The notes beneath the pieces were generated by a model, which searched no databases, was not told the DNA's origin, and worked only from the letters and a program-made list of their open reading frames with translations. A stretch of 64,000 nt of DNA from Candidatus Marinacidobacterales bacterium (GTDB lineage Bacteria; Acidobacteriota; Vicinamibacteria; Marinacidobacterales; DATDRI01): contig OZ245365.1 of assembly GCA_965226495.1 (NCBI GenBank), forward strand, positions 1,088,001 through 1,152,000. The letters are read 5' to 3'. The position numbers were made by a program, and so were the translations under genes. Positions 5,283-57,338 of this stretch are shown in pieces; the first letter of the stretch is position 1; each line of letters begins with the position of its first letter.

Positions 5283-7079
5283 TCACCAGCCGCAAGTTCG
5301 TCCCTTGTTCTGATCCTCCAGCCACGCCATCAGGGGCGCGAAGTAGTCGATGATGGCGCTCGCATCCATTTCGCGTCCGCCCGTGAACTCCTCCATGGTG
5401 TCTTGCCAGGGCTGGGACGTTCCTTTCTCCAGCATGGCTGCCAATCGCTCACCGGCTTCCTGGCTGCCATAGATGGAGCACTCGTGGAGTGGACCTTGCT
5501 CGCCCGCAGCCTTGCAGGCGGCTCGGTGGAACTGGAACTGAAGTATGCGGGCAATGAAGTAGCGTGTGTAGGAGACGTTTGCCGGTATGTGGTACTTGGC
5601 GCCCGGATCGAAGTCGGCTTCAGTGCGCTCAATAGGAGGAGCAATGCCTTGATAACGCTCACGAAGCTCCCACCAGGACGCGTTGTAATGCTCAGGAGCG
5701 ATTTCGCCCGCGAATACCAGCCAACGCCATTGATCAATGAGTTTGCCAAACGGTAGGAATCCGATCTTGTCTAGAGCCAAGTTCATCTGCTGGTTGATCA
5801 CCGCCTCGCGGCTAGTCTCGACGCCATCTGTGAGGCCGACCTGGTGAAGGTAGGCCGGTGTCATCGATAGATTGATTGTGTCGCCGATACCCTCATGGAA
5901 TCCCGGATTGGCACTCGTTTGATAAAGCGCCGGCAGGTGGCCGTAGTGCAGGTAGTAATAGACGTGCCCCAGCTCGTGATGCACGGTCACCAGCTGGTCC
6001 GCAGTGGGTTCGATGCATTGCTTGATGCGCACGTCCTTGCCGGAATCCATGTTCCAGGCACTGGCGTGGCATACCACCTCGCGGTCTTGTGGTTTGGTGA
6101 GCATGGAGCGTTCCCAGAAAGACTCCGGAAGCTTGGGCATCCCTAAGGAGACGAAGAAGCCCTCCGCGAGCTCGGTCATGCGAATCGGATCGTAGCCCTG
6201 ATCGACGAGGGCTTTGCCGACATCTAGCTCGGCCACGCCGGGATAAGGCTCCACCAAGTCGTAGATGTTGGCCCACTCTTGCGCCCACATGTTTCCGAGG
6301 AGATGCGCGGGGATGGGTCCATCGGAAGGGACTTTGTCCTCTCCGTAATGCTCGCCGAGTCGCGCTCTGACGTAGCAGTGCAGCTGCTCGTACAGAGGCT
6401 CCACCTGGCTCCAAAGCCGCTCCGTTTCTTGCGCAAACTCATCGGGAGTCATGTCGTAGGCGGAACGCCACATCTGGCCGAGATCCCCAAAGCCAAGGTT
6501 TCGCGCGCCCTCGTTCGCCAGCTCCGCGAACCGCTTGTAGGCCGAACGCATGGGCGGTGAGACGGTCCGCCAGCCTCTCCAAGCGTCCAAGAGCTCGCCA
6601 TAATCACGGCTTTCAGCTAGTACTCGCTCGAGCTCAGGCAAATTCTTGCAGGTCTCCTCCCCGCCGGAACAGTACTTGCCTTCGCCGTAAGCGCCGGTGA
6701 GCTCCTGGTACAGGCTGGTGAGCTCCTCGCGATTTCTGGCATCCGCGGGCGCCGGGCGCCGCGTGTCCTGTAGCTTTAGCAGCTTGAGCGAACGTGCGAC
6801 GTCGGCCCCCAAGTCTTGGTCCAGGTAACGCCTCGATTCGGCTACCACTTGATTCTGATACTCGAGGAAGCGCTACTGTGCTTTAGCTGCGAGAATTGCG
6901 GTGTCCGGCGTTATATAGGTTGCGCGGACCCAAGCGGCGGCGGCCGCCTCTTTCTCGAGCTCCTCGAGCTCCCGATTGACGCGCGTGATGAACTCCTCGG
7001 CGGTCTCTTCGGTGGCCCGCGCCCCTTGACATGTCGCAACCAAGAACGCCAGCATGAGTAGCATCCGGTTCGTTGACAT
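5283..7079 (-). pseudogene. M2 family metallopeptidase (ACE/peptidyl-dipeptidase A-like) with one in-frame TAG
   Basis: HHELGH zinc motif, ANPGFHEGIGD, HLLGNMWAQ and DFDPGAKYHIP. The signal-peptide ORF (6873-7079) is in frame with the main ORF, separated only by TAG at 6875-6873. Confidence 0.9.
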
Positions 7080-7093
7080 CAAATCACCTTTCG

Positions 7094-7625
7094 CTAGTAG
7101 ATTCCCTTCACCAGCTCTTCATCGGTGGGAACGTAGTTCAACGCATCATGCTTTGGCTTCGAAGTTCCCTGAGTCACGAGCGAAACCGTGACGAAAGTAA
7201 TGAGGCTTACCACCGGTGGAATTAGTGTGTCGAGGCCCGCGTACGGTTCCGGAATCAAGAAGTACAGAACGACTCGCGTTAGGGTGCCGACGACGATGGC
7301 GGCAATCGCCCCCGGAGTGTTGGAACGTCTCCAATAGATGCCCAGCGCCATCGGTACAAAGCATCCGGCGAGAACGACGTCGAACGCGAGAATCAGCAGG
7401 ATACCAGGCTCTGGCCTGGAAGTAGGCGAAGGCGATCGAAGCGGCCATCGTAGGGAGTGCGATGAAGCGAGAGAAGCGCAGCATCGTGTCATCGCCCCAG
7501 GTCGATTTCGTGTAGCGCTGTACGAGATTCCGGGTGATGACGTTGGCTAGATCGAGGACCACTCCGGCGGCCGCGGACATACTCGCTGCGATCACGCCCA
7601 GGAGAATGGCGGTCCCGACGACGGC
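7094..7625 (-). pseudogene. C-terminal fragment of a sodium:solute symporter (SSS), frameshifted
   Basis: LGVIAASMSAAAG.....ANVITRNL (SSS motif), a frameshift near 7413, then LGIYWRRSNTPGAIA. The 5' part is missing. Confidence 0.75.
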
Positions 7626-9689
7626 GGGAAGTCTTGGCGAAGAGTCGAGAACGGCTTGCCCGGCGGTATGCTCGGGAAGATCGGCATCGACATCTATTCG
7701 AGGAATCCCCGTATTCTCTATGCGACGATCGATAACGCCAACTCGCCCGGAGTTTCCGACGACGCCAGGCGGCGCGAGTTCTTCGACGAAAAGCGGGCCA
7801 GTAAGCCGACGGTTGGCCATGCGATCTATCGCTCGGACGACGCCGGAGACTCGTGGCGTCAAGTCAGCCCGCCAGGCGAAAGCATCGGCAATCGGTCCAA
7901 CTACTATGGCCAGATCATCATCGACCCCAATGACGAGAACCACCTTTACGTACTGAGCTCGAGGGTGGATGTGTCTGTGGACGGTGGCAAGACCTGGACC
8001 CATCCGCTTCGTTACGGAGGCGATAATCACGTCCTGTGGATCGATCCGGCGGACTCCCGGCACATGATCATGGGTTATGACTATGGAATGGCGATCACCT
8101 ACGACGCGGGGGCGCGCTGGTACCACCCCGATGAGCTTTCGATGGCGCAGCTTTACGCGGTGGGCGTCGATATGGATTACCCCTATAACGTCTACGGCGG
8201 AACGCAGGACTTCGGCTCCTGGAAAGGGCCGAGCACGAAAAAGGGTCGTTTTCCGATTCGGTTCGAAGATTGGGAGCACATGAACGGAGGGGATGGGTTC
8301 TACAACCAGGTAGATCCAACCGACAGTCGGTGGCTCTACAGCGGCTCTCAGTTCGGGCACATCCAGCGGATCGATCAGAAGACCGGCGTTCGAAAGACGA
8401 TTCTCGGTGACCGTGACTCCGACCAGCGGTTCAATTGGAATACGCCGCTTCTGATCTCGCCGCATAACAGCGACGTCCTATACGTGGGGGCCAACGTTTT
8501 GCTCCGGTCTCCGTTTCGAGGCGAGCGTTGGGAGACAGTGAGTCCCGATCTGACGAAGAGCGACGCTAGCAAGTTCAAGGGTGTTGGTGCGGTGAGCTAC
8601 GGCACCATCACCACCGTCGACGAATCGCCTATTGAACAGGGGGTTCTCTGGGTGGGGACCGACGATGGCAACGTGCAGCTCTCTCGAGACGGCGGTGAAA
8701 CGTGGACGGACCTGAGCGAGAATGTCACCGGCAATCCCGGATACTGGGTGACCCGAATCACCGCCTCTCATCACGACGTGGGAACTGCCTACTTGAGCTA
8801 CACGGGTCTGCGCCGCGACGACTTCCGCTCTTTCGTCTACCGGACTACCGACTTCGGGAAGTCCTGAAGTTCGATTGCCTCCAACTTGCCCCCTGAGTCC
8901 GTCAACGTCATCAAAGAAGATCGAAAGAATCCCAATTTGCTTTTTGTCGGAACCGACAGGGGAGTCTACGCGAGCCTAAATGGGGGTCGGAATTGGGTCC
9001 GCATGACAAACAACCTACCCACCGTGGCGGTTCGTGATCTCGTAATACACCCACGGGAGAATGATCTCGTGGTGGGGACTCACGGCCGGGGATTCTACAT
9101 CACCGACATCTCTCCTCTGCAGGAGCTCACCCAAGAGGTATTGGCGTCCGAAGTGCACTTGTTCGAGATCGAGCCCAAGGTGCAATGGGTCATGCCGAGC
9201 CAGCCGTCGGTGAGCGCTCAGAACTTCGAGGGCGATAACGAGCCTCACGGTGTGGTGATCAACTATTACTTGAAGAAGGAACCCCCGGGCGACGTGTCGA
9301 TCCGGATCTACGATGGGACGCGGCTCATCAATGAGATAAGCGTGTCAGGATCGGTCGGGCTCAACACCGTCGAGTGGGGCATGACTAAGCGAAGACCCCG
9401 AACGTCTGAGGAAATCGGGCGTTGGGACGAGCGGAACGATGAGTCGGCGGAAGAGGAAGAGTTTTTCGATTACTACGACACGGTGGACTTTTACGGCGCT
9501 CCCGACGAAGAGGTGGACAAGTGGGGGCGATCGCTCGAGACGAGGGTTCACGCCGAGGCCGGTATCACCGAGCGCGAGTACGCCTATTTCCGCGTTCCGC
9601 CAGGCGCATACACTATCGAGCTTTTGGTTGGTGGTACAGAGCTGCGCGGCGAGGCGCTCATCTTGCAGGACCACTGGTATGACAAGTGA
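7617..9689 (+). pseudogene. VPS10/sortilin-like BNR (Asp-box) repeat protein, N-terminally truncated, with in-frame TGA at 8865-8867
   Basis: Asp-boxes DDGGKSW, SDDAGDSW, SVDGGKTW, SRDGGETW, TTDFGKS*, SLNGGRNW. Also RFNWNTP and GTHGRG. Starts abruptly with no signal peptide. Confidence 0.85.
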
Positions 9690-9691
9690 TA

Positions 9692-9744
9692 TCCCCCTCA
9701 CCCGGCCGCCTTTGGCGGCCGACCTCTCCCCGGAAGGGGAGAAG
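9692..9744. repeat. REP-like GC-rich double hairpin (CCCCCTCACCC...GACCTCTCCCC...GGGGAGA)
   Basis: Same core as the elements at 32026-32177 and 54619-54769. Lies immediately after a stop codon. Confidence 0.75.
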
Positions 9745-9939
9745 TACATCAACCACACTTTTGAATATGAGTGCAAGGCACTCAACCAACTTGCGTCGCC
9801 CTTCTTTTCCCACTAGGATCGCCTAGAGCCTAACGGCTTTGAATCCTGGCGTTACGAAGACGACAACCTGAATGAATTTACCTAATCGGGGAAATATTCG
9901 GCCGTGCGGCGGTTTGGCCGTTGCTACGAGGGGATTTCC

Positions 9940-12900
9940 ATGAGCCAAAGCGAAACCGAAACCGTTCTAGACCCAATCGAAGAACAGAAGAAGGAGCTCG
10001 AGTGGAAAAGCGCCATCTGCGGAATCTGTCCCGCCGGTTGTTGGGTGGAAGTGGGGCTAGACGGCGAGCAGTTGGTGAACATCAAGCAGGACACCTCTCA
10101 TCCCCTCGGCATGATTTGCCGCCGTGGTCAGCACTCTCCCGAGATCATCTACTCCGAAAATCGCCTCAAATACCCGATGCGGCGGGTGGGCCCAAAAGGC
10201 AGCCATGAGTTTGAGCGCATCACCTGGGACGAAGCCTACGACCTCATCACCAAGAACCTAACCAAAATCAAAGAAGAATCAGGGCCAGAAGCGGTCGCGA
10301 TTTACACCGGTCGCGGCACCTTCGAGTTGTCCCTCTGCGACATGTTCCAGCCTAAAGGGGTTGGAGTGTCCTCCGCCTCGAACGTGCTGTTCCCATTCGG
10401 TTCGCCGAACACAATGGGAGTCGGGGCTCTCTGCTACGTGTCCTTCGCCGTCATCGCTCCCCACGTGACCATGGGACGGATGCTCGTCAACATGTTCACC
10501 GACATGGAAAATGCCGAGATGTTGATAGTGTGGGGGGCAAACCCGGCTACCGATTCTCCTCCCCTCGACATGCACCGACTGGAAGCTGCGGCGAAACGCG
10601 GGGCTGAGATCGTGGTCATCGATCCGCGTAATACCGAGAACCGCAACACGGACCAACGCCAAATGGGTTCCGATCCGACCTGGTACCGACGGCGCTCTCG
10701 CTCTTAGCATGATCGAGGTCATGATCGACGAGGAGCTTTACGACGAGGATTTTGCAGAGAACTGGTGTCATGGGTTCGACGAGCTGAAGACCTACGTACA
10801 GCACTTCCGTCCCGAGGTCGCAGAGTCCATTACCGGTGTTCCGGCGGAGACGATCCGGGAACTGGCGCGACGACTTTGTTACGCGACCGGGGCCTGCCCG
10901 GTGATGTACACCGGACTCGAGTATTCCAACACCGGAATTCAGGCGATTCGTGCCGTGCACACTTTGTTCGCCTTGGCCGGTCAACTGGATGTGCCCGGCG
11001 GCATCGGGCTCGGGATGCTCGACGGCAGTTTCCCCATCAACCGCTCTGCGAATCAAGAAAACCCGGACACCGACCTGGCGGTGGCGCGGGATAAGTTCCC
11101 CCTCTACACGCACTATCGCGAGGAGTCCCACGCTAGCGGGCTTCTGGATTCCGTTTTGAAGGGAGAGCCTTATCGTATTCGAGGCCTGCTGATTCACGGC
11201 GCATCGCTTTTGACTTCTTGGCCGGCGACGCCTACCTGGCGCGAGACTCTTTCCAAGTTGGATTTTGTCGTTTGCATCGACCGCCAGCTCACCGCCGATT
11301 CCGCCTATGCCGACGTCGTTCTGCCTGCGACCACGATGTTCGAGATCGACTCCTACCTCACCTACGGTCCCATCTTCAGGCTGAGGGAAAAAGTAATCGA
11401 GCCGGTCGGGGAGTCCCGAAACGACTATCTGATTATGGCGGAGCTTGCCAAGCGACTTGGCTACGGACATCTTTACCCTCAGACCGAAGAAGAGATGATC
11501 CGCCTTGCCCTAGACGGTTCTGGCTACACGCTCGAGGACGTCAAGGCTCAGGGTGGTTGGGTTAAGATTCCCACTTCGATGATGGAGTACAGGAAATGGG
11601 AGAAAGGGGCTCTACGACCGGACGGGAAGCCGGGCTTCGATACCCCAACCGGTAAGTTCGAGATCTGGTCCACTGTTCTCGAGGACTACGGGTACGAGCC
11701 GCTACCGAAGTACGTTGAGCCCAAAGAAGGACCCATTGCCAGTCCCGACGTGGCGGCGAGTTTCCCCCTCGTTTTCAACTCCGGCGCACGACCCCATACC
11801 GATTTCCGCTCCCAGCATCACGGCGTCGAGGGACTCGCCAAGGACAATCCCGAGCCCACCGTAGAGATCAACCTCGAGGATGCGGAGGAGAGGGGCATCA
11901 AGACCGGCGACCTCGTGGAAGTGCGCTCGCCGAGAGGCGCGGTTCCTTTCCGCGCTCGGGTCACCAAAGACATCGTCAAGGGTGCCGTCGAATGCAATAT
12001 GGGCGGCGGCGGACCCGTAGGACCGAAGGCATGGCAGGAGTGGAACGTCAACGAGCTGACGGACATTGCAAACTACGACGAGATTTCCGGGTTTCCGGTC
12101 TATAAGGCGCTTCTTTGTGACGTGGTTCGGACCGAAGAGGGTACCGAGGCCACGCGACGCACTGCGGTGCGGTCGGGGAGCGTTTGCGAGCCGCTACTGT
12201 TTTCGCCCCACGAAAGGAAAGGGCCGGAGAGGAGAATCTATCTCGACAACAACGCGACCACACGGGTCGCCGATGAAGTGCGCGAAGCCATGCTTCCCTT
12301 CTTGGAAGCCGTCCATGGCAACCCTTCGAGTATCCATGGGGTGGGTCGCGATGCACGGGAGGCCGTCGATAATGCACGTCGGCAAGTGGCCAAGCTCATC
12401 AACACGCGGCCGCGGCGGATCATATTCACGGGCGGGGGATCGGAAGCGGACAATTTGGCGTTCAAAGGGATTGCCTTCGCGCATCAGGACAAAGGCAAGC
12501 ACATCATCACGACGTCGATCGAGCATCCCGCCATTCTCGGAGCCGGCAGCTTCTTGCAGAAGCTCGGTTACGAAGTAACGTACCTGGACGTGGACGAGGA
12601 CGGTTGCCTATCTCCAGAGAAACTGACGAAGGCCATCCGAGACGACACCATCCTGGTCTCCATCATGATGGCCAACAACGAGGTGGGGACCATTCTCCCG
12701 ATCAAGGAGTTGTGTGCTATCGCGCACGATAGGGGCGTTTTGTTCCACACCGACGCGGTTCAGGCGGTTGGCAAAATCAAGGTCGATGTCGAGGACCTCG
12801 GCGTAGACTTGCTCAGCATGTCGGGCCACAAGTTCCACGGACCCAAGGGGATTGGTGTGCTCTACGTCAAGAGCGGCGTCCGACTCGAGCCGCTCATCCA

Positions 12901-13387
12901 CGGTGGCAAACAGGAGAACGGTATCCGGGCAGGGACCGAGAACGTCCCCGCGATCGTGGGCTTGGGCAAGGCGGCAGAGCTAGCGGCTCAGGCCGTCAAG
13001 GACGGCGAGAAACTCAGGGCTCTCAGAGACAAACTGGAGGCTGGAATCAGGAAGCTCGTGCCGAAAGCCAAATTGAACGGCCCTGCCGAAAACCGGCTTC
13101 CCAACACCCTCAACTTGACCTTGCCGGCGCTGCGCGGTGAATCGCTGGTGGTGGCACTCGACCAACACGGGATCTCGCTGTCATCGGGCTCGGCGTGCAA
13201 ATCGGGCTCACCCAAACCGACTCATGTGCTGATGGCTATGGGGCGAACCGAGGAGGAGGCGCACTGCGCGGTAAGGTTGTCTTTATCTCACGACGTGACG
13301 GAGGAAGATATCGGCGAGACGATATCGGCTTTGGAGCACGTGCTCGAGGAGATGGAAACAACCGTCCGGTTCCTCCCCTGCAAGTAG
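9940..13387 (+). CDS. Fusion of a DMSO-reductase-family (bis-MGD Mo/W) oxidoreductase and a C-terminal IscS/NifS-type cysteine desulfurase; apparent +1 frameshift near 10639
   Basis: N-terminal CGICPAGC...C [4Fe-4S] motif, GSPN...LC, WGANP, VIDPR, ADVVLPATT, TPTGKFE and a C-terminal molydop-binding domain. Then YLDNNATT, GNPSSIH, HTDAVQ, SGHKFHGPKG (PLP Lys) and SSGSAC. Removing one A at ~10639 restores DPRNTETATRTNAKWVPIRPGTDGALAL. Confidence 0.9.
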
Positions 13388-15320: not shown

Positions 15321-17285
15321 CTATGGCGTATACCAGATCGGCGAGGTATAGGCGCGCTCCTGGAGTGTCATCGATCGGCGAGGTATAGGCGCGCTCCTGG
15401 AGTGTCATCGGTCTTTCGGCATCGTCACGCCAAAACGCTTGGAGTCGTACGCCGTCCAGCGTGGCGTTGGAATCTCAAGCACGCGCACATAATAGAAGGC
15501 GCGCTGTTTCGGGTCGAAGTCCGGGTCCTTCCAGTAGGCCATCATCAGCGGGTCGCCTATCGAGTTGCGATACGTCGCGTTCGGGACGTCAACCGTCGAG
15601 CCAACAGGGGTCTTGCAGCGCCCGTCGGTACCGATCTTGCGGCCGTCAGACACGGCCGTGTCGTAGACGCGCTCGTGCACTTCGCCTTCGCTGTCGAGCC
15701 AACCCTTAATGATCTGCACCCGGTCGAGGTTCGCGCCGTCAACATCGCGCAGCGTCCGTACCATTAACGTTGGCGCTTTACCGGCAGGAGCTTCTCTCAG
15801 GTCGCCCCCCATGGGCACGCCACGCCTGTAGCCCTGCGCCGCGAAGTCGGGCCGTTCGACTTCCTCCGGCTGGAAGTCCCAGCCGGCAAAGACCCGCACT
15901 GTGATGCGCGTGCCAGTCGTGCCATAGACTTCTTTGCGCGCCATCGCGTCAAAGAGCGACTCCCGTGTGTTCTCGCGGGACCAGATACCGAGCAGGCCCC
16001 CAGCCTGGACATTCCAGGTGGACGCGACAACCTCGCCGTCCTGGCCGCGCATGAAGACGTGTTTCCAGCGAATCGGGCTCGGCTCGTCGGACGCCCATTT
16101 GCCGAAAAAGTTGTCTTCCTCGACGGTTGACATCGAAGTGTGCGTGTCGGTCGAGCCGATCATGCCGAACTTGAACGGGTTGGCGCCGAGTTTCTGCGTC
16201 CACTGCAGCCCGAGCTTCAGGGCCGAGCGCGCATATTCGGTCCGCAGCATCTCATTTTCCTTCGGGTCGCTCGGCGAGTTGAAGTTGCCGAAATCCCAAG
16301 TCTCGAAGTCAGCGAACTCGTCGTCGGTAGACAGGAACGGATGAGTCTCACCGTCGCCCTTGCTTTGTGTGATTTCGAGCAACGGCTCGCGCCGCGCCCG
16401 CTCTTCGGCGTAAGCGCGGGTAAAGGCTTTGCCCGTATACGTCTCTCCCTGGAACATGCGCCCATTACTCATGTTCCCGTTGTGCGGGATCGCGAGCACC
16501 TGCCCGTCCGTCTTCTGCTCGTAGGCAGCCATGTATTTCCACAGGTCTTCGGGATCGGCACTGTCGATGGCGGAAAACGGCAGGACCTGGTTCACTCGGC
16601 CCGGGCCGTCACGGAAGATCACGACGCGGTGGAGGTTATTGGCACCGGGAAAGCTGGTCCACTCAAAGCCGTTGAAAGCGGTGAACTTCCCGGGCTCGTT
16701 GTAATTGGTGGCGATGGCCGTTACTCGTTCCCAGATGGAGCGCCTCGTCTTTGGGCCCAATTCCTTTCCCGTGCCCGGATAGATGACCGCTTTGGCAACG
16801 TCGAACGCTGCCATGAGAGCTTTCTCGCCCCCGGCCTGGACCGCTTCATACCACCGCTTACCCTCAGGCGTGGCCAGCATGGCGGGATCAGCTCCTAAGA
16901 TCAGGTCCGCTAGGCCCATCATCTCCGCGTGGTCAGACACGACCAGGAAATCGAACGGCCGATTGAGCCTCACGCGCAAGCCGGTGTTCGACAGTACCTC
17001 CTCACCTCGCGCGAAGCGGTAAGAGTCTTCCGGCCCAAGCCTAGTGCCCATGAATCCATCGTCGTAGGACAAGTTGGAGTGGTGGTGCGTATCGCCCCAG
17101 AACACACGATTGGGAAAATGCTGATCCACGTAGGGCGAGTACTCGACTTTCTTGGCAGGAGCGTCCTCCGCGCGGGGCAGTGTCTCCTGCGCCCGCGCAG
17201 GCGGCGCCAGAGTGAGCCCGACGGCAAAACAAATTGCCACTAGAGCCGTCAGGGCTGAACTTCTGAGTTTTGAGGTTCTGATCAT
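15321..17285 (-). CDS. DUF3604 domain (PHP-like) secreted protein, paralog A; C-terminal tail disrupted
   Basis: WGDTHHH, DFLVVSDHAE, FEWTS, NNLHRVVIFRD, IPHNGN.SNG, GSTDTH, YYVRVLEIPTPRW. The conserved tail QERAYTSPIWYTP* ends at 15321, but the ORF stops early at 15405. Confidence 0.88.
15336..15409. repeat. Perfect 37-bp tandem duplication in the DUF3604 3' end
   Basis: GATCGGCGAGGTATAGGCGCGCTCCTGGAGTGTCATC at 15336-15372 and 15373-15409. Confidence 0.95.
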
Positions 17286-18699: not shown

Positions 18700-18880
18700 C
18701 CCAACGAACACGCGCATCTTTGGACCGACGTACCCGGTTCTTTTTGTCCTGGCAGGGGTTTGCTGGTACTGGCATCCACGGAGGGTGATTGCACGCCCAA
18801 CGGACATGTAGGTTTTTTATTTGCGTGATCGCAACACCGGCAAAGACAACAAATCTATAAAAAGAATGTGGAGAAGAATG

Positions 18881-20779
18881 ATGAAAGCTCTATCAACCGC
18901 CGCCATCACATGGCTCGTATTAATAGCGCCCAATTATGTCCTTGCTCAGGATTACACGCCCCAGCAAGACCAGGTGCCGGAAAAAAAGCACGAATATTCA
19001 CCGTACGTCGAACAGCATTTCCCAATGCGAGTGTACTTTGGCGATACACATCACCATTCATCCTATTCCTTCGATTCCGGCATGTTCGGAAACACACTTG
19101 GGCCGGAGGAATCGTTCCGTTTCGCCCGGGGTGACGTAGTCGTTGCGACCAATGGAATGAAAGCCAAACTCATTCGACCGCTGGATTTTCTGGCGGTCAC
19201 CGATCATGCTTCATACCTTGGATTTACTGAGTTAATGGCCAATTCCGATCCCCGTTTGATGGCCACCAAGGGCGGCCGAGAGATGGTCGAGGGTTACCAG
19301 GCCGGCGGTGAAGAAGCCTGGTTGTTAGTGGTAAGCATGATGAAGGATTTCGACATCGGTAAGCCCCGTCTCGAAGACCCCGACCTCAGCCGGAGCGTTT
19401 GGGAGCGTGTGGTGGATATTGCCTCCGAATACAATGAACCCGGATTTTTTACCGCTTTCAATGGCTACGAGTGGACATCTGCGCCTACCGGAAACAACTT
19501 GCACCGCAACGTGATCTTTCGTGACGGCCCGATTCGTGTGAAGCAAATCGTACCGTTCTCGGCATTTGATAGCCCCGACCCTGAACCCCTTTGGGAGTTT
19601 ATGGCCGCTTACGAAGCGAAGACGGGAGGACAAGTACTGGCAATTCCCCACAACCCGAATATCAGCAACGGTATAACGTTTGCAGAGACCATGAGCAATG
19701 GAAAACGACTTACCCGGGAATACGCTGAGAAGCGCGCCTTGTGGGAACCGCTGCTGGAAGTCACCCAAGCAAAAGGGGACAGCGAAGCCCATCCTTTCTT
19801 ATCTACCGAGGACGAGTTTGCAGATTTTGAAACATGGGATTTCGGCAATGCCGGATCGCCAATGAAGCCGAAAGAGAACGATATGCTGCAATATGAATAC
19901 GCTCGCTCGGCTCTGCAATGGGGTATGAAACATAAATTGAAATTGGGCGTAAATCCCTTCAAATTCGGCATGGTCGGCGGCACTGACACCCACACTAGCC
20001 TGTCAACAACCAGAGAAGAGAATGTTTTCGGAAAACTGCCAGCCTTGCTGCCAGGTCCAGACCGAACCGGAGAAGCCATGGTGATGAAAGCGGACGGTAC
20101 ACCCGCGGTGGAGTCATGGGAGACAAGTGCGTCCGGCCTTACCGGCGTCTGGGCGCAGGAAAACACTCGCGAGTCCTTGTGGGATGCCATGGCTCGTAAG
20201 GAAGTTTACGCCACCACCGGTACCCGCATCACTGTCCGCGTTTTTGCCGGATGGGATTTCGAAGCAGATGAAGTAGAACGCCCGGATTTTGCCAAGCAGG
20301 GCTACAGTCGCGGGGTACCCATGGGTGGCGACCTTACTGCAGCGCCAGCCGGTAAGACGCCGACCTTCATGGTACGGGCTCTGCGCGACGTCGACGGGGC
20401 CAACCTCGACCGCCTCCAGGTCATCAAGGGCTGGATCGATGCCAATGGCCTACCGCGAGAGAAAATATATGATATCGCGGTTTCAGACGGACGGACCATC
20501 GGTCCCAATGGCCGCTGTAAAACGCCGGTCGGAAGTACTGTGAATGTTGCCAACGCAGACTATACGAACTCGATCGGCGATGCTTTGCTGATGGGCCACT
20601 GGAAAGATCCGGAATTCGATGCAGATTTGCACGCCTTTTACTACGTTCGCGTAATCGAAATCCCAACGCCGCGCTGGACGGCTTATGATGCCGAGCGCTT
20701 TGGCATCACGATGCCGGATAAGGTAACGATGACAGTTCAGGATCGGGCCTATACGTCGCCGATCTGGTATACGCCATAG
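18881..20779 (+). CDS. DUF3604 domain (PHP-like) secreted protein, paralog B
   Basis: Signal peptide, FGDTHHH, DFLAVTDHA, YEWTS, NNLHRNVIFRD, GGTDTH, ending QDRAYTSPIWYTP. Intact ORF. Confidence 0.9.
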   Translation: MKALSTAAITWLVLIAPNYVLAQDYTPQQDQVPEKKHEYSPYVEQHFPMRVYFGDTHHHSSYSFDSGMFGNTLGPEESFRFARGDVVVATNGMKAKLIRPLDFLAVTDHASYLGFTELMANSDPRLMATKGGREMVEGYQAGGEEAWLLVVSMMKDFDIGKPRLEDPDLSRSVWERVVDIASEYNEPGFFTAFNGYEWTSAPTGNNLHRNVIFRDGPIRVKQIVPFSAFDSPDPEPLWEFMAAYEAKTGGQVLAIPHNPNISNGITFAETMSNGKRLTREYAEKRALWEPLLEVTQAKGDSEAHPFLSTEDEFADFETWDFGNAGSPMKPKENDMLQYEYARSALQWGMKHKLKLGVNPFKFGMVGGTDTHTSLSTTREENVFGKLPALLPGPDRTGEAMVMKADGTPAVESWETSASGLTGVWAQENTRESLWDAMARKEVYATTGTRITVRVFAGWDFEADEVERPDFAKQGYSRGVPMGGDLTAAPAGKTPTFMVRALRDVDGANLDRLQVIKGWIDANGLPREKIYDIAVSDGRTIGPNGRCKTPVGSTVNVANADYTNSIGDALLMGHWKDPEFDADLHAFYYVRVIEIPTPRWTAYDAERFGITMPDKVTMTVQDRAYTSPIWYTP

Positions 20780-31257: not shown

Positions 31258-31362
31258 GGGGACGGATCGGAACTTGTATCTCGTGAGCCTGCTGACCGCG
31301 TGTCAGCTCAATCATGGCAAAGGGGATTTTGGCGGCCGCACGGAGACCTGTACACTAAAGAC

Positions 31363-32019
31363 ATGCACCGAAAGGCGTTCATCGCCTGTCTCATAACGTC
31401 GCTCGCGGCGTGTCAGGGAGATCCCAACGTGGCCTTGGTCGAGGCCTCGAAACAAGGTGACGCCGACCAGATACCGGACCTCTTGGAGGCCGGCGCCGAC
31501 CCGAACCTTCGAGACGAGGATGGGTCTTCGGTGCTCATGTTGGCGGTTGTTTCTGGCAAGCACGACGCCGTGCGTGCCTTGCTCGAAGGCGGAGCCGAGC
31601 CTCAAGCGACGATCGAAAACGGATCGACAGCATTGCACGTCGCGGCCGGAACCGGCGATGCGGCGGTGGTACGCACGCTGCTCGAACTAGGTGCCGACGT
31701 TAATAGCAGGACCAGCTCCGGCACGACCTCTTTAATGATGGCGGCCCTTTGGGGGCATCTCGACGCGCTCCAAGTCTTGCTAGAGGCGGGTGCGCAGAAG
31801 AACCTCAAGAACGAGGACGAATCCTCGGCACTGATGCTTGCCACGATGGAACGCCGTCCCGAGATCGTTAGAGCACTTCTGGACGCCGGCGCCAACCCGA
31901 GGATCGAGAGAAGGGGACTCACTCCTTTAATGATGGCCCGGCGGGAGGGCTATACCGAGATCGAGATCATGCTGCGCGATGCACTAGGGCTTGGCAAAAA
32001 GAAGGGGCGGAAGTTCTAG
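31363..32019 (+). CDS. Ankyrin-repeat lipoprotein
   Basis: LAAC lipobox and repeated G.TAL..AA..G....V..LLE.GAD.N units. Confidence 0.88.
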   Translation: MHRKAFIACLITSLAACQGDPNVALVEASKQGDADQIPDLLEAGADPNLRDEDGSSVLMLAVVSGKHDAVRALLEGGAEPQATIENGSTALHVAAGTGDAAVVRTLLELGADVNSRTSSGTTSLMMAALWGHLDALQVLLEAGAQKNLKNEDESSALMLATMERRPEIVRALLDAGANPRIERRGLTPLMMARREGYTEIEIMLRDALGLGKKKGRKF

Positions 32020-32025
32020 GCGCGA

Positions 32026-32177
32026 CTAGTGGACGGTAATAATGAAATCGATACTGGACTTCATCGCCGCTATCCACGCGCCCCCCTCACCCGCCCGCCG
32101 AAGGCGGGCGACCTCTCCCCCGGAGTCGGGGGAGAGGTAATAGAGGTGGTACCAACTTCGTTGGCACGGCCTATTAG
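32026..32177. mobile_element. ~152-bp MITE-like element with imperfect terminal inverted repeats and internal REP hairpins (copy 1)
   Basis: Aligns over its whole length with the reverse complement of 54619-54769. Overlaps the sulfotransferase stop codon. Confidence 0.75.
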
Positions 32178-32782
32178 CGGCGGTTTCGATAGAGCTTCTC
32201 GTCCACGGCGCTGGTCATCTTGTCCACGTCGAGATTCCCCAAGAATTCACTAATACGCTCGGCCTCGCGTCGCGGATTCGCCACGACGTCCTTGTAGTTC
32301 ACTTCCAGCAGCTCGAAACAAGGACGATGTTTCATCAGGTAGTTCACTTTCCAGAGATGATTCTTGTAGACCTCTAACATCTCCTCGTCCGAGGTTTCGG
32401 AAGCCTCAGCCCGATTCTTCAGCATTTTCGTTTGGGAGGCCAGAACCTCGTCCAGGTTACGGCGCATGAACACCACCTTGTAGTTGTTCGTCTCCGGGAG
32501 ATCTTTTAACAAGAAAGAGATGATCTTGATCGTCTTTCCCCGGAACTCCTTGAGGTAGGACTTGTCCGGCTCTTTCTCCAGCTCCTTGACCCGTTCGTAC
32601 TCGTAATACCCTTTGGGGTTGTCCTCGCCGGCCTTTCGGATTCCGTCGGTGGCGATGCTGAGCCCGGCGGCCTCCAGCATCTGCATGGTCATGGACGTCC
32701 CGGAGCGGGGGAGGCCCGAGACGACAATCAGCGGCTCACCGAACCGGATTCTTCTATAAGTCCTGACTAAAGTGGATGTCAT
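32174..32782 (-). CDS. Sulfotransferase family protein
   Basis: IVVSGLPRSGTS 5'-PAPS-binding loop, NPKGYYE, and MRR...EVLASQ 3'-PB-like motif. Confidence 0.88.
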   Translation of the reverse strand: MTSTLVRTYRRIRFGEPLIVVSGLPRSGTSMTMQMLEAAGLSIATDGIRKAGEDNPKGYYEYERVKELEKEPDKSYLKEFRGKTIKIISFLLKDLPETNNYKVVFMRRNLDEVLASQTKMLKNRAEASETSDEEMLEVYKNHLWKVNYLMKHRPCFELLEVNYKDVVANPRREAERISEFLGNLDVDKMTSAVDEKLYRNRR

Positions 32783-45817: not shown

Positions 45818-46895
45818 CGCGAATTCATAAAGTAAGTGCAACACAGCTCCCGGATGAGGTGACCTGGAATGTGCCACGATTCCTCAAACAACCAAGAATG
45901 GGGACTCGCTAATGACTTATTACCAGATCACCTCGGAAGAACGCTACACCATCGCGGCGCTGCGACGGGAGGGATTTTGCTCGGCCGAGATCGCGCGGCG
46001 CCTGGGGCGCCACCGGAGCACCATCTCGAGAGAGGTCAGGAGGAACAGCTCACCTAGTGATGGATGCTACCGGCCGAGCAAGGCCATCGAGAGAACGAAC
46101 GGACGACGCTCGCGGTCTCGCCGGAACCAGTACTTCACAAAGGCCGACTTTGCCCTGGTGGAGAAGAAGCTTAAGGCCGACTGGAGCCCAGAGCAGATCT
46201 CCGGCCACCTGCGCCTTCACGGCGAGCTCTCGATCAGCCACGAGACGATCTACACCCACGTTTGGCGGGACAAGGAGGCCGGAGGACATCTATACCGCCA
46301 CCTTCGATGCTCGCCCAAACTTAGACGCAAGCGCCACAACAGCTACGACAGCCGAGGCCGCCTGGCCGGGAAGCGTCACATCTCCGAGCGGCCGTCTTGT
46401 ATCGACAAGCGCCGTGCCGTTGGCCACTGGGAGATTGACACCGTGGTAGGAAAAGACGCGCCGGACTGCGTCACCACGCTCGTGGAACGAAAGACGGGCT
46501 ATGCGCTGATCGGCAAACTGTCCGACCGCAGCATGTTCGGCACTAGCCAGCGAACGAAGATGTTGCTCCGGCGGGTGCCGGATCAGGTCAAGACCATCAC
46601 CGCGGACAATGGCACGGAGTTCCACGACTACGAATCCGTCGAGGAAGCGACCGGCGTCAAGTTCTACTTTGCAACTCCCTATCACTCATGGGAGAGAGGC
46701 AGCAACGAGAACTTCAATGGATTGCTACGACAATACCTGCCGAAGCGCACCAGCCAAGCAGCGCTCACGCAACGCCACTGCGATGGTATCGCAAAGAAGC
46801 TCAACACACGGCCCCGCAAGAGGCTCGGTTACCGCACACCGGAGGAACGTTTCCATGGGAACTAACGAATGGTGCGCTTCAAACTTGAAGTCACA
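45818..46895 (+). mobile_element. Complete IS30-family insertion sequence (1078 bp) with 3-bp GGT target duplication
   Basis: Imperfect IRs CGCGAATTCATAAAGTAAGTGCAAC / GGTGCGCTTCAAACTTGAAGTCACA. GGT at 45815-45817 and 46896-46898. Confidence 0.9.
45912..46865 (+). CDS. IS30-family transposase
   Basis: HTH IARRLGRHRSTISRE, WSPEQI, GHWEIDTV, TADNGTEF, WERGSNEN.NGLLRQY.PK. Confidence 0.96.
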   Translation: MTYYQITSEERYTIAALRREGFCSAEIARRLGRHRSTISREVRRNSSPSDGCYRPSKAIERTNGRRSRSRRNQYFTKADFALVEKKLKADWSPEQISGHLRLHGELSISHETIYTHVWRDKEAGGHLYRHLRCSPKLRRKRHNSYDSRGRLAGKRHISERPSCIDKRRAVGHWEIDTVVGKDAPDCVTTLVERKTGYALIGKLSDRSMFGTSQRTKMLLRRVPDQVKTITADNGTEFHDYESVEEATGVKFYFATPYHSWERGSNENFNGLLRQYLPKRTSQAALTQRHCDGIAKKLNTRPRKRLGYRTPEERFHGN

Positions 46896-48083
46896 GGTCT
46901 TCGAGTCCGACGCCGCGGATCGATGCCTTCGCGGGGCAGGCGACGCTCTTCGAGACGGCGTATGCGCAATCGTCTTGGACCAAGTCATCGGTGGCTTCGA
47001 TCATGTCGGGGCTTCTGCCGCGCGCGCACGCCGCCAACCGGCGCGAGGATGCCTTGCCTCCTGGAATCGACACGCTGGCTGAGCGGCTGGATCGATCGGG
47101 ATACGCCAGAGCCGGTTTCGTTACCAACCCGAACCTCGCGTCGGCCTTTGGTTTCGATCAAGGGTTCGAGACATACGAGCTTCTTGTCGAGGAAGACCCA
47201 CAGCGAGGCTACGTCCGTTCGGATGCACTTAACCGCCGCGCCATCGAATGGCTCGAGAACCGCAGCACGACCGAGCCATTCTTCCTCTATATGCATTCGA
47301 TGGATCCTCATGATCCCTATCTTTCTGGGGCTTCCCGAGCAGAGCCGGCGGACGGGATCGGCACGATGGCATTTATGACTGCTCTCGAGGATGGGCGAAT
47401 CGATTCTTCTGCAGAGATCCATACGAGGCTGATGGAACTGTATGATTCAGAGATCGCGTTCAACGATCAACACTTCGGCGAGCTGCTGGATTGGTTGAAG
47501 CGCGTCGGCCTGTACGAACCAACGCTTATTGTGCTCGTCTCCGACCACGGCGAAGAGTTCGACGACCACGGTTGGTGGCGTCATGGCAAGACGCTCTACC
47601 GGGAGCAGCTCGAGATCCCACTCATCGTGAAGTGGCCGGGAGGGCATGATGTAGGCGTTCGCCGTGAGGACGTTGCTCAGCACGTCGATTTGTTGCCGAC
47701 GTTGATGCGGCACATTGGCGGGGAGTCGACTAGCGATCTTCACGGACGAAGTCTTTGGAGCCGGCAGACCAGCCCCGCAGTGTTCAGCTACCTCAATCTG
47801 GATGGACGCGAGCTGGAAAGCGTCGTCTACCGAGACCAGAAGCTCATCCGGTATCTTTCCTTCGATCGGCCGCGGTCGCCCCTCCAGGTTTTCGATCTCG
47901 CCTCGGATGGAGCGGAGTCCCGAGACCTGGCGCCTGAGCGACCCCTTCCAGCATCCTTTCTGGCGAGGCTTCTCGCACATTCGAGAAGTTTGTCCGGGAC
48001 GCGAGTCCCGGTGCCGGCGACGATCGACGAGTCACTCGAGGAGAAACTTCGGGCGCTCGGCTATCTGCGGTAGTTCTGATGGG

Positions 48084-54799: not shown

Positions 54800-55918
54800 A
54801 TGGCAAGAGACGGAAGGAACATCGACTTCGGTTTCGTAGCCTCCGCGGCCGGCGCACCCGGCGCCTCGGATTCCGAGACGTATGAGAATATACTCGGTGA
54901 CTGCGAGGAATACTCTGCGCTGGGTTACAGTACGGCCTGGGTCCTCGAGCACCACTTCTCGGACTATTTCCCCACGCCGGACCCGGTAGCCTTGCTCCAC
55001 TTCATCGGAGCCCGGTTTCCAAAACTCAATTTGGGCACGTGCGTCATCGTGACGCCATGGTACGAACCCCTGCGGTTGGCAGGAGCCATCGCACAGCTCA
55101 ATACGTTCACCGAACGTGAGCTCCACCTGGGTTTGGGGCGGGGGGCGGCAAAGTACGAGTACGATCGCTTCGGTCGTGACATGGAAGCGTCACGCCCACG
55201 GTTCAAGGAGACGTTGGATATCCTTCGCCTCGCGCTTCGCGGAGAGCCGTTTACGTACCAGGGCAAGATCTTTCAGATGACGAAGGAGACCAGGGTTCGT
55301 CCGCGCACCAATGCGGAGAAGATCCACTTCTATGGCGCCATCGGGAGCCCGGGCTCGGCGGCGATCATGGCAGAGCTCGGGATCCCGCCAATGTGCACAA
55401 CCATCGGTGACTATGAAGCACAAAAACGCACGTTGGATGCGTGGAAGGACGAGGCCCGCTCGAAAGGGGCTTCGACCGACGTGAAATTTCCGATCATGGT
55501 CAACTGCGTCATCGCCGATACCGATGAAGAGGCTGTCGAGGAAGCCCAGCTTTACATGCCGCGGTTCATGCAGGCCCAAGTGGATCACTACACGGTCGAT
55601 GAGACCGATTGGGAGAACATCAAGAGCTACGAGGCTTGGAAGAGGATATTCTCCGGTCTCAAGTCGAGATGTGATCCCGAGAACATCCCAGCTTGGACGA
55701 AGTGGCAGTTTGTCGGGACGCCGGAGACCGTGCGAGAGAGAGTGCAGGCCTATATCGACGCGGGATTCAACACGTTCCTCATCCACACTGCGACGCCAGA
55801 CGTGCCGGTCGAGCCGCGGCGCCAATGGACTCGAAGATTCGCCACCGAGGTCGCACCTCACTTCTCCTCTTCATTCGGGGCTGGCCGTCGGCAACAGGTA
55901 TCCCAGGTCGATCGGTAA
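54800..55918 (+). CDS. LLM class (luciferase-like) flavin-dependent oxidoreductase
   Basis: WVLEHHF, P.RLA, LGLGRG, FVGTPETV, FATEVAP. Confidence 0.9.
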   Translation: MARDGRNIDFGFVASAAGAPGASDSETYENILGDCEEYSALGYSTAWVLEHHFSDYFPTPDPVALLHFIGARFPKLNLGTCVIVTPWYEPLRLAGAIAQLNTFTERELHLGLGRGAAKYEYDRFGRDMEASRPRFKETLDILRLALRGEPFTYQGKIFQMTKETRVRPRTNAEKIHFYGAIGSPGSAAIMAELGIPPMCTTIGDYEAQKRTLDAWKDEARSKGASTDVKFPIMVNCVIADTDEEAVEEAQLYMPRFMQAQVDHYTVDETDWENIKSYEAWKRIFSGLKSRCDPENIPAWTKWQFVGTPETVRERVQAYIDAGFNTFLIHTATPDVPVEPRRQWTRRFATEVAPHFSSSFGAGRRQQVSQVDR

Positions 55919-55919
55919 G

Positions 55920-57338
55920 ATGTTCAGTCCGAGCGAGATGAAAGCGCGCGCCGAGGCGGCGAAGGGACCCGCCGCCGCCTTAGCGGAGCGGGGTGCCAAG
56001 TTTGTGCAAATCGAAGTCCCCGACATCAACGGGACGGTGCGCGGCAAGATCGCGGGCATCAAGAAGGCACTCTCCCCGGCCGGAACGGCCTTGTCGACGT
56101 TGATGGTCTCTTTCCGGAGCCGTGACGAAGTCAGTCTGACGCCCTTCAGCAACTTCGACAACGCGTTCCCGAAATTCGTGGCGGTTCCCGACACGTCGAC
56201 CGTGGTGAGCTGGCCGTGGAGCCGGGACATGGGGGCGGTTCTCTGTGACCTTTATATGGAAGACGGATCACCTTGTCCCATGGATGCCCGCCAGATTCTG
56301 AAGAACGTCGTCGCCGAGTACCACAAGCTGGATCTCGAGCCGCGAGCGGCCATCGAGTACGAGTTCTACGTGTACGAAGCCGACGACACGCTAATGCGCG
56401 AGGGTCGATACCGGGAGCTCAAGACCTTCGGACGAGGTTGGGATTGCTACAGCGTGGCTCGGTTCCCGACTTTCCAGCCTCTGGCCAAAGAGTTCCTTAC
56501 CCGCATGGAGGGGATCGGGATCGATGTCGAAGCGTTCCACACCGAGCTGGGCCACGGGATGCTCGAGTTCACCATGGGGCACGAATCACCGGTGAAAGCG
56601 GCCGATGACGCAGTGCGGACCAAGCTCTATTTCAAGCAACTGTGCGCCGAGCAAGGTCTGGTCGTGTCTTTCATGCCGGCTATCTACGTGGGTACGGGTG
56701 ATTCAGCGAGCGGTGCGCACCATCATCTGAGTTTCTGGCGTGACGGGAAGAACATCAGCTGGGATCCGGACAAGAAGACGCTCGGCGCGGTGACGCGAAA
56801 GGTCGCCGCCGGCATGATGGACACCATGACCGATTTCCATCTTGTGTTTCGGCCGTGGGTTAACTCCTACCGCCGGATGAACTACCTGCAGTGGAACCCG
56901 GAGAACACCTCGTGGGGTCTCGACAATCACACCACGGCGATTCGTGTCGTACATGGCGCGGTACCAGCACAGCAGACCCGGCTGGAGCACCGGACGCCCG
57001 GATCCGACGTGAACCCGTACCTCAGTCTAGCGGTGATGCTGCTAGGGGGGCTCTACGGAATCCAAAACGATCTCGACCCTGGGGCGTACGCGGATGGCGA
57101 TCCCATGAAATACGATCGGTTTCAGCTTCTGCCGAAGACACTTCCCGATTCCATCAAAGCCTTCCAGGAATCGAGGCACACGCGCGCCATGCTCGGAGAA
57201 GCGTTTGTCGACCATTTCGCGGCGCTCAAGAACGACGAATGGAAGGACTTCACCAAGTGGACCGAGGACAAGGGTGTCCCGCTCTCCACCGAAGACGTGA
57301 CCGATTGGGAGTTCCAGCACTACTTCGTTTGGGCTTAA
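55920..57338 (+). CDS. Glutamine synthetase-like gamma-glutamyl-amine ligase (PuuA/GlnA-like)
   Basis: DINGTVRGK, EYEFY, HTE.G.G..E, SGAHHHLS, NSYRR, WGLDNHT, EHR.PG.D.NPYL. Confidence 0.88.
   Translation: MFSPSEMKARAEAAKGPAAALAERGAKFVQIEVPDINGTVRGKIAGIKKALSPAGTALSTLMVSFRSRDEVSLTPFSNFDNAFPKFVAVPDTSTVVSWPWSRDMGAVLCDLYMEDGSPCPMDARQILKNVVAEYHKLDLEPRAAIEYEFYVYEADDTLMREGRYRELKTFGRGWDCYSVARFPTFQPLAKEFLTRMEGIGIDVEAFHTELGHGMLEFTMGHESPVKAADDAVRTKLYFKQLCAEQGLVVSFMPAIYVGTGDSASGAHHHLSFWRDGKNISWDPDKKTLGAVTRKVAAGMMDTMTDFHLVFRPWVNSYRRMNYLQWNPENTSWGLDNHTTAIRVVHGAVPAQQTRLEHRTPGSDVNPYLSLAVMLLGGLYGIQNDLDPGAYADGDPMKYDRFQLLPKTLPDSIKAFQESRHTRAMLGEAFVDHFAALKNDEWKDFTKWTEDKGVPLSTEDVTDWEFQHYFVWA

Follow-up and report, generated by a model that had tools for sequence, protein, structure and literature searches.

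A probable metallopterin-dependent ergothioneine synthase gene, interrupted by one extra base, in a Candidatus Marinacidobacterales genome

Introduction

Metallopterin-dependent ergothioneine synthase (MES) was described by Beliaeva and Seebeck (JACS Au 2022; PMC9516567). According to that paper, from which all statements on characterized MES enzymes below are taken, MES is the only known molybdenum (Mo) or tungsten (W) enzyme that forms a C-S bond, and represents one of four independent routes to ergothioneine. Here we report on a 64,000-nucleotide stretch of the genome of a Candidatus Marinacidobacterales bacterium (the window, to which all coordinates refer), in which positions 9940-13387 of the plus strand are, very probably, an MES gene interrupted by one extra base at ~10639. 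From its sequence we infer that this particular orthologue would make ergothioneine from hercynine and cysteine, i.e. that it uses the same substrate.

Four MES enzymes have been tested, i.e. CaMES, AbMES, EaMES and hvMES, and MES is active with Mo or W (PMC9516567). CaMES, from Caldithrix abyssi, has 1136 residues, comprising a metallopterin module (residues 1-718), which is 27% identical to acetylene hydratase, the enzyme with the closest reported fold, and a desulfurase module (residues 747-1136), in which Lys952 binds pyridoxal phosphate (PLP). Its Fe4S4 cluster is bound by cysteines 14, 17, 21 and 48 and its metal by Cys153; the C153S variant is inactive and K952A is inactive in production. 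The C1074S and C1135S substitutions each lower production 2000-fold, both cysteines being essential, whereas Cys1097 is conserved yet dispensable, with a 2-fold loss on mutation. The isolated desulfurase module is active and converts L-cysteine to alanine. Sulfur transfer is obligatorily intramolecular, there being no complementation on co-expression of desulfurase-dead and ligand-dead variants. The last step is reversible, with the K952A variant still exchanging 34S between ergothioneine and hercynine; because K952A retains this sulfur exchange, the desulfurase serves each turnover and not activation of the enzyme. EgtD is co-encoded in 55 of ~80 MES genomes (PMC9516567).

An earlier reading of the window, made from the letters alone (the sequence-only reading), described a molybdopterin oxidoreductase fused to a cysteine desulfurase and was aware of no characterized enzyme with this architecture, a statement that is out of date, MES having been described in 2022 (PMC9516567). 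The enzyme class is rare but already known, and its recognition in the window is a correct rediscovery of it from raw sequence. Later literature found on MES consists only of citations of the 2022 work, and no literature was found that treats a cysteine desulfurase-molybdopterin oxidoreductase fusion under those terms.

Results

Domain architecture and conserved residues

Two open reading frames (ORFs) lie end to end on the plus strand, 9904..10707 (267 residues) and, directly after it in the next frame, 10709..13387 (892 residues). The first matched the Pfam profiles Molybdop_Fe4S4 (E 1.7e-07) and Molybdopterin (profile positions 1-152, E 2e-21); the second matched Molybdopterin positions 196-353 (E 3.3e-12), Molydop_binding (residues 361-467, E 1.6e-21) and a full-length Aminotran_5 (residues 510-868, E 3.7e-85). 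The N-terminal module is of the bis-molybdopterin guanine dinucleotide (bis-MGD) type (dimethyl sulfoxide reductase superfamily) with a four-Cys Fe4S4 motif, with PF04879, PF00384 and PF01568 all matched. The ORFs and Pfam matches thus bear out the claim of the sequence-only reading that a Mo/W-bis-MGD module is fused to a complete cysteine desulfurase within 10709-13387; it was also right that the fusion does not depend on the frameshift, because the junction lies inside the 892-residue ORF.

The features of the gene are given below. Residues are numbered by a read-through of 1148 codons that skips the extra base and were checked codon by codon, and conservation was scored over 48 aligned full-length sequences of the family, drawn from both sub-clades.

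9940..10638, plus strand: 5' part of the MES gene, codons 1-233, covering the Fe4S4 domain and the first portion of the metallopterin module (PF04879, PF00384; 92.2% identical to residues 2-231 of the intact relative P0001)
10018..10119, plus strand: predicted Fe4S4 cysteines Cys27, Cys30, Cys34 and Cys60 (CaMES Cys14/17/21/48), invariant in 48/48
10432..10434, plus strand: Cys165 of the GALC motif, predicted Mo/W ligand (CaMES Cys153), invariant in 48/48
10639..10639, plus strand: extra base causing a +1 frame shift, from alignment with 5 intact homologues; its placement within GAGAACC (10636-10642) is arbitrary
10640..12109, plus strand: remainder of the metallopterin module (Pfam domains Molybdopterin and Molydop_binding)
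12110..12235, plus strand: inter-module linker, from the translation, with a Cys in RSGSVCEP whose column is <90% conserved
12236..13387, plus strand: NifS/IscS-type cysteine desulfurase module, ending in LPCK and a TAG stop (PF00266, E 3.7e-85)
12830..12832, plus strand: Lys964, predicted PLP lysine (CaMES Lys952), motif SGHKFH, invariant in 48/48
13196..13198, plus strand: Cys1086, predicted persulfide-forming residue in the SSGSAC loop (CaMES Cys1074), invariant in 48/48
13265..13267, plus strand: Cys1109 (CaMES Cys1097), at least 90% conserved
13379..13381, plus strand: Cys1147, penultimate residue and predicted relay Cys of the C-terminal tail (CaMES Cys1135), invariant in 48/48; the gene ends ...FLPCK

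All residues named in PMC9516567 are present in the window. The equivalent residues of P0001 are 25, 28, 32, 58, 163, 962, 1084, 1107 and 1145, i.e. offset from those of CaMES by +11 and then by +10, and in the read-through all 216 invariant alignment columns are kept, with 4 of the 224 near-invariant columns differing. The HK motif for PLP, the SSGSAC loop, the FLPCK end and the RSGSVCEP linker that had been pointed out are all in the translation. The Cys of GALC, put forward as a metal ligand, is Cys165, which shares its alignment column with the ligand Cys of both polysulfide reductase (2vpw) and acetylene hydratase (2e7z). The N-terminus, MSQSETETVLDPIEEQKKELEWK, lacks a twin arginine, and Pfam searches of 46 ORFs of the window revealed neither an Fe-S or membrane subunit nor an isc/suf gene or fdhD; the sequence-only remark that a Tat signal and such neighbours are missing therefore holds.

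By sequence, the entry of the Protein Data Bank (PDB) that best matches the Mo module is polysulfide reductase 2vpw (E 1.3e-68), and the desulfurase module matched PDB desulfurases with E-values of 3e-112 or lower. For P0001, which is 93% identical to the window protein, AlphaFold2 gave a model with a pLDDT of 81.8 and a pTM of 0.68. The top structural match of this model in the PDB is acetylene hydratase 2e7z (E 1.9e-46, TM 0.82 on target), and its C-terminal half matches Nfs1/IscS/NifS (TM 0.90-0.96 on target). No PDB entry spanning both modules was found by structure search, and no MES entry by sequence search. Confidence in the model drops at the ligand region (161-183) and in the linker (744-758), as well as at the Cys loop (1084-1088) and in the tail (1138-1146); pLDDT is <50 at the linker, which is predicted to be disordered, and at the C-terminal tail. 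In the model, the low-confidence loop and tail would be compatible with a mobile relay, without being evidence for one.

Reading frame

The start codon is ATG 9940, with a purine-rich GAGGGG upstream. Frame 1 reads '...VVIDPRNTE' and the continuation in frame 2 is 'TATRTNAKWVPIRPGTDGALALSMIEVMI'. In a DNA alignment, 5 intact relatives have GA[AC/G]-AC[CG] where the window has GAG-A-ACC, i.e. one extra base at ~10639, and the frameshift that the sequence-only reading placed there is thus confirmed. Positions 9940-10638 and 10640-13384 give 233 + 915 = 1148 stop-free codons, with 92.2% (212/230) and 92.8% (849/915) identity to the intact, 1146-residue P0001; relatives at 93% identity have an intact frame. 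The 892-residue ORF holds the desulfurase and about two-thirds of the metallopterin module, with the Fe4S4 motif and Cys165 lying upstream of the one-base insertion. Programmed frameshifting was considered and rejected, the extra base being absent in 5/5 intact homologues aligned at the site.

Occurrence of the fusion and its annotation

The junction (residues 370-660 of the 892-residue ORF) was used as a search query and matched 2634 proteins at E <= 0.001. Molydop_binding (PF01568) and Aminotran_5 (PF00266) lie across the junction in all of the best 120 of these, which are 69-93% identical over the junction; 91/120 are at least 1100 residues long, the others being shorter and many of them from short contigs. 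Among the best 150 matches in a library clustered at 50% identity there was one full-length fusion representative (P0121, 61% identity), together with fragments that span the junction and unfused Mo enzymes (715-735 residues, 39-54% identity). A scan of one genome per species gave at least 600 matching stretches, of which the best 80 loci comprise 46 fused, 16 complete unfused, 2 cut by contig ends and 16 distant (28-33% identity). The domain-architecture check proposed by the sequence-only reading thus returned the same fusion in 120/120 listed relatives and 46/80 loci. An assembly chimera was rejected on the same counts, the junction being spanned in 120/120 relatives. Three of the 46 fused loci (L023, L042 and L053) are split by frame errors, as is the window copy.

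Public records call these MES proteins IscS, NifS or 'selenocysteine-containing dehydrogenase', which is an annotation gap. The database names of the relatives are 'IscS subfamily cysteine desulfurase', 'cysteine desulfurase NifS', 'aminotransferase class V-fold PLP-dependent enzyme' and 'anaerobic selenocysteine-containing dehydrogenase'. No ergothioneine-synthase model is among the best 25 of the 49 NCBIfam (release 20) families matching P0001. The best match of the desulfurase module, TIGR03402 (nifS), scored 518.8 bits against a cut-off of 530.75; the IscS equivalog TIGR02006 (395.3 against 643.2), NF010611 (401 against 548), the nifS_epsilon equivalog model (375.9 against 587.7) and the PhsA model (276.2 against 694) were likewise below their cut-offs. 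The only model among the best 25 whose cut-off P0001 clears is the broader, generic IscS subfamily model NF002806 (322.3 against 304).

Association with EgtD

Clustering of the neighbouring genes of the 46 fused loci, for which about 10 kb was seen on each side of each fetched locus, gave one conserved partner of ~335 residues, directly beside the fusion and mostly on the same strand. The partner is a SAM-dependent histidine-specific methyltransferase (PF10017, Methyltransf_33; E 6.5e-88 to 5.6e-111 in three examples, and 4.2e-90 in L045). Its profile is present in 29/46 fused loci and in 0/16 complete unfused loci. The product of EgtD is N-alpha-trimethylhistidine (hercynine), the ergothioneine precursor. 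The conserved EgtD neighbour thus points to trimethylhistidine as the sulfur acceptor, and the fused loci are identified as MES because of it. No egtD was in view at 17 fused loci, 8 of which extend for at least 1.7 kb to either side of the fusion, the other 9 being cut within ~1 kb on one side.

Phylogeny

In a tree of 65 rows (IQ-TREE quick mode, LG+G4), the fused proteins group together (SH-aLRT 94) and divide into two clades, A and B; the window falls among these fused, EgtD-linked proteins. Clade A (19 rows, support 100) includes the window, whose nearest row is L001 (81% identity over 915 columns), and has members from a Calditrichia metagenome-assembled genome (MAG), Gemmatimonadota, Acidobacteriota, Chloroflexota, Fidelibacterota, Planctomycetota and Pseudomonadota; clade B (29 rows) is mainly of Thermodesulfobacteriota and allies, with egtD in 22. 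The spread of clade A (L001-L016, L041, L042 and the window) over at least 7 phyla at ~70-80% identity suggests horizontal gene transfer. EgtD-linked and unlinked members are interleaved in this tight clade (~70-80% identity), and because of this interleaving the unlinked members are read as the same enzyme, with egtD probably encoded elsewhere or hercynine imported.

Among the fetched loci are MAGs with the labels Gemmatimonadota, Vicinamibacterales, Chromatiales, Solirubrobacterales and Actinomycetes, groups whose cultured relatives are often aerobes. MES in MAGs of such groups would be a modest extension of its known range and not a new kind of system.

Proposed mechanism

By homology to CaMES, the C-terminal PLP enzyme would convert L-cysteine to alanine, with the sulfur being kept as a persulfide on Cys1086. 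The sulfur may then be relayed within one polypeptide, via Cys1147 of the tail, to a reduced Mo/W centre, which is predicted to be held by two MGD cofactors and Cys165. Following the metal(IV)/metal(VI)=S cycle tentatively proposed by the authors of PMC9516567, metal(IV) would take the sulfur to give metal(VI)=S, the imidazole ring of hercynine would attack the sulfido ligand through its C2, and ergothioneine would be released with return of the metal to the IV state. The net reaction would be Cys + hercynine giving Ala + ergothioneine, for which an external electron donor or acceptor would not be needed; with no electron partner required, it would be no surprise that a Tat signal, Fe-S or membrane partner subunits and FdhD are all missing.

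The sequence-only reading had proposed that sulfur from Cys is delivered in cis for cofactor sulfuration or Fe-S loading. Delivery in cis to the metal centre stands, having been shown for CaMES; the proposed purpose does not, given the sulfur exchange by K952A. Its alternative, i.e. reduction of the persulfide by the Mo domain, is not supported, since the sulfur ends on C2 of trimethylhistidine.

Unfused relatives

Six loci (L050, L052, L054, L055, L057 and L063) form an unfused sister clade of MES (support 100) encoding Mo enzymes of ~735 residues. In 6/6 of these loci a methyltransferase lies directly upstream, which is OvoA C-terminal-domain-like and has a Trm112-like zinc ribbon (e.g. L057:8257-9204, next to the Mo enzyme at L057:9254-11473); it matches TIGR04345 (4-mercaptohistidine N1-methyltransferase) at E 1.4e-34, below the cut-off. 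The Mo enzymes retain the Fe4S4 cysteines and the ligand Cys, and a conserved tail, '...DP[ST]LGC..', recalls the tail Cys of MES. This sister clade may represent an O2-independent route to an N-methylated thiohistidine, with sulfur taken in trans; on anaerobic molybdopterin-linked ovothiol formation, only the MES paper (PMC9516567) was found.

Upstream of four further unfused relatives (L044, L046, L048 and L059) lies an MttB-superfamily methyltransferase gene (PF06253; E of roughly 1e-92 to 1e-96 in the three that were scanned), directly adjacent in 3/4, as in L048, where 7733-9232 precedes the Mo enzyme gene at 9248-11446. It is a speculation that this pairing serves the breakdown of ergothioneine/hercynine or of another quaternary amine, which it could do because the metallopterin step of MES is reversible.

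Other genes in the window

The genes just upstream of the MES gene are an M2 peptidase, a symporter remnant and a BNR/sortilin-like gene. The M2 peptidase gene (angiotensin-converting-enzyme-like; PF01401, E 5.6e-216) spans 5283-7082 on the minus strand and has an in-frame TAG at 6873-6875; the 69-residue upstream piece has a hydrophobic N-terminal stretch, signal-peptide-like by eye, and matches profile positions 3-46 weakly. The BNR/sortilin-like gene (7656-9689, plus strand) has an in-frame TGA at 8865-8867, reading TTDFGKS*, exactly where the Asp-box motif, SxDxGxTW, would have Trp, which is suggestive of a change from TGG to TGA. Between these broken genes lies a remnant of the C-terminal part of a sodium:solute-symporter-like gene, 7094-7492 on the minus strand and on to ~7700, which was recognized by eye and has no Pfam match; together with the MES gene, there are thus four consecutive damaged genes. 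An alternative genetic code behind the neighbouring stops was rejected, the stops being one TAG and one TGA, with long ORFs open under table 11.

Downstream of the MES gene, at a distance of a few kb, two divergent copies of DUF3604 face each other, 15405-17285 (minus strand; E 2.7e-221) and 18821-20779 (plus strand; E 9.3e-231). An ankyrin-repeat protein (31300-32019), a sulfotransferase (32174-32782) and a sulfatase (46991-48073) are also encoded, a gene set that is often reported for host-associated, sponge-type symbionts. An IS30-like transposase (HTH_38 and rve) precedes the sulfatase ORF, the two spanning 45912-48073 on the plus strand; the latter starts at profile position 54, so the N-terminus of the sulfatase seems to be lost or out of frame. 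A glutamine-synthetase-family protein is encoded at 55524-57338, and there are no tRNA genes in the 64-kb window.

Discussion

The residue-by-residue agreement with CaMES, the shared architecture and the conserved EgtD neighbour of the fused loci argue for MES, and several observations pull the other way. The assignment itself rests on numbering offsets, architecture, a homologue from a Calditrichia MAG and EgtD context. A six-frame hmmsearch found no egtD within the 64-kb window, even at E <= 10; within clade A egtD is in view at 7/18 loci, and eight fused loci (L003, L004, L005, L007, L009, L015, L042 and L043) have no egtD with flanks of at least 1.7 kb on both sides. The partner of one fused locus scored 290.2 bits with the TIGR03438 egtD model, just under the cut-off of 290.9. 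The broken frame puts the Fe4S4 motif and the metal-ligand Cys outside the desulfurase ORF. According to PMC9516567, MES homologues are exclusively in strict anaerobes.

Whether the gene is still used is a separate matter, the extra base being, from the sequence, either a sequencing error or the mark of a very recently inactivated copy. That the insertion is real, and that the organism no longer makes ergothioneine by the MES route, we regard as a serious possibility that falls somewhat short of an even chance. Such a pseudogene would account for the one-base insertion relative to 5 intact homologues, and it would be in keeping with the lack of egtD in the 64 kb and with the disruption of the genes just upstream, which have been disrupted by non-indel changes (the TAG at 6873-6875 in the M2 peptidase and the TGA at 8865-8867 in the BNR/sortilin-like gene) or reduced to a remnant (the symporter, 7094-7492 and beyond). 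Against this, the gene shows no further decay, with 0/216 invariant and 4/224 near-invariant columns changed and 1148 codons free of stops, and split copies occur in other assemblies; because the copies in L023, L042 and L053 are also split, assembly errors evidently do occur in the MES gene.

Alternative functions for the fusion fare less well. An MES-like enzyme with another acceptor or chalcogen, i.e. one acting on a different heterocycle or on imported hercynine, or with selenocysteine lyase activity in relatives lacking egtD, seems quite unlikely to us, despite egtD being outside the fetched flank at 11/18 clade A loci and selenocysteine lyases being detectable relatives of the C-terminal module. 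In PMC9516567, hercynine uptake gives more production than co-expressed EgtD, and other Mo enzymes are said possibly to sulfurise heterocycles; the mixing of EgtD-linked and unlinked members in one clade at ~70-80% identity nonetheless argues for one substrate, and egtD may lie elsewhere in genomes of which ~10 kb on each side was seen. Still less probable is self-maturation, in which the desulfurase would sulfurate its own cofactor or load the Fe4S4 cluster once, leaving the Mo domain to act on an unrelated redox substrate. IscS-type enzymes do feed sulfur to the Mo cofactor (Moco) and to Fe-S clusters in trans, but K952A of CaMES keeps an active metallopterin site capable of 34S exchange, so that the desulfurase is needed for each turnover (PMC9516567), and EgtD is the sole conserved neighbour of the fusion, with no conserved redox partner genes beside it. 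The slightest chance we give to a cysteine-driven persulfide or polysulfide reductase, i.e. a Psr-like Mo domain that reduces the persulfide to sulfide; its attraction is that 2vpw is the top PDB sequence match of the Mo module, yet acetylene hydratase is structurally closer than Psr, there is no electron-input subunit, Tat signal or PsrB/PsrC-like neighbour, and the EgtD linkage and published activity point elsewhere.

With MES as the preferred assignment, the message of the window itself is modest, i.e. a known enzyme with a broken frame. Recognizing MES matters for annotation, given that the relatives carry desulfurase or dehydrogenase names, and the fetched loci place MES in many uncultured lineages, so that the list of likely ergothioneine producers grows for sediments and soils and possibly for communities associated with hosts. 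It is conceivable, though in our view improbable, that the sub-clade of the window, in which egtD is mostly not adjacent, is a horizontally mobile 'salvage' synthase that thiolates environmental hercynine or a related imidazole in hosts that are not strict anaerobes; if true, Mo/W-dependent thiohistidine chemistry would reach further than the niche known from the 2022 paper. Likewise, if the corresponding suggestions hold, the unfused sister clades linked to OvoA-C-terminal-like and MttB methyltransferases would be further thiohistidine or quaternary-amine enzymes.

Of the known systems, MES as represented by CaMES is the closest, with the same domain order and length (~1140 residues, with a metallopterin module at ~1-720, then a linker and then the desulfurase), the same four Fe4S4 cysteines, Cys ligand, PLP Lys, loop Cys and penultimate Cys, an acetylene-hydratase-like fold and, in most of the family, an EgtD neighbour; the window copy differs in its +1 frameshift and in having no egtD within 64 kb. 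Acetylene hydratase (2e7z) likewise has an N-terminal Fe4S4 cluster and a Cys ligand, is cytoplasmic and catalyses a net reaction that is non-redox or redox-neutral. It is, however, ~24% identical in the structural alignment, lacks a desulfurase module and catalyses hydration, not C-S bond formation. The Asp that follows its second cluster Cys (C-Q-S-C-D; the catalytic Asp13) is Pro in the window (C-G-I-C-P), as the sequence-only reading had seen in reporting the catalytic Asp after CxxC to be missing.

PsrA (2vpw) acts in the periplasm together with Fe-S and membrane subunits. It has in common with the window protein the column of the Cys ligand and the handling of sulfane sulfur at Mo; in contrast with PsrA/PhsA, the window has neither a twin arginine nor PsrB/PsrC-like neighbours, and none are conserved in the 46 fused loci. 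The eukaryotic Moco sulfurases ABA3/MOCOS are maturation factors for enzymes of the xanthine-oxidase family, and their domain order is opposite to that of MES. They too consist of a NifS-like desulfurase fused to a Moco-binding domain and involve a terminal sulfido on Mo, but this Moco-binding domain is of another fold and no such Pfam domain is present in the window protein. ABA3/MOCOS are cited as a precedent for MES in PMC9516567, the difference being that sulfuration by MES occurs in every catalytic cycle. Housekeeping IscS/NifS enzymes are 40-45% identical to the desulfurase module, with TM scores of 0.90-0.96 and the same PLP Lys and mobile Cys loop, whereas the module scores below the equivalog cut-offs, carries an additional LPCK tail at its C-terminus and is fused to its own acceptor.

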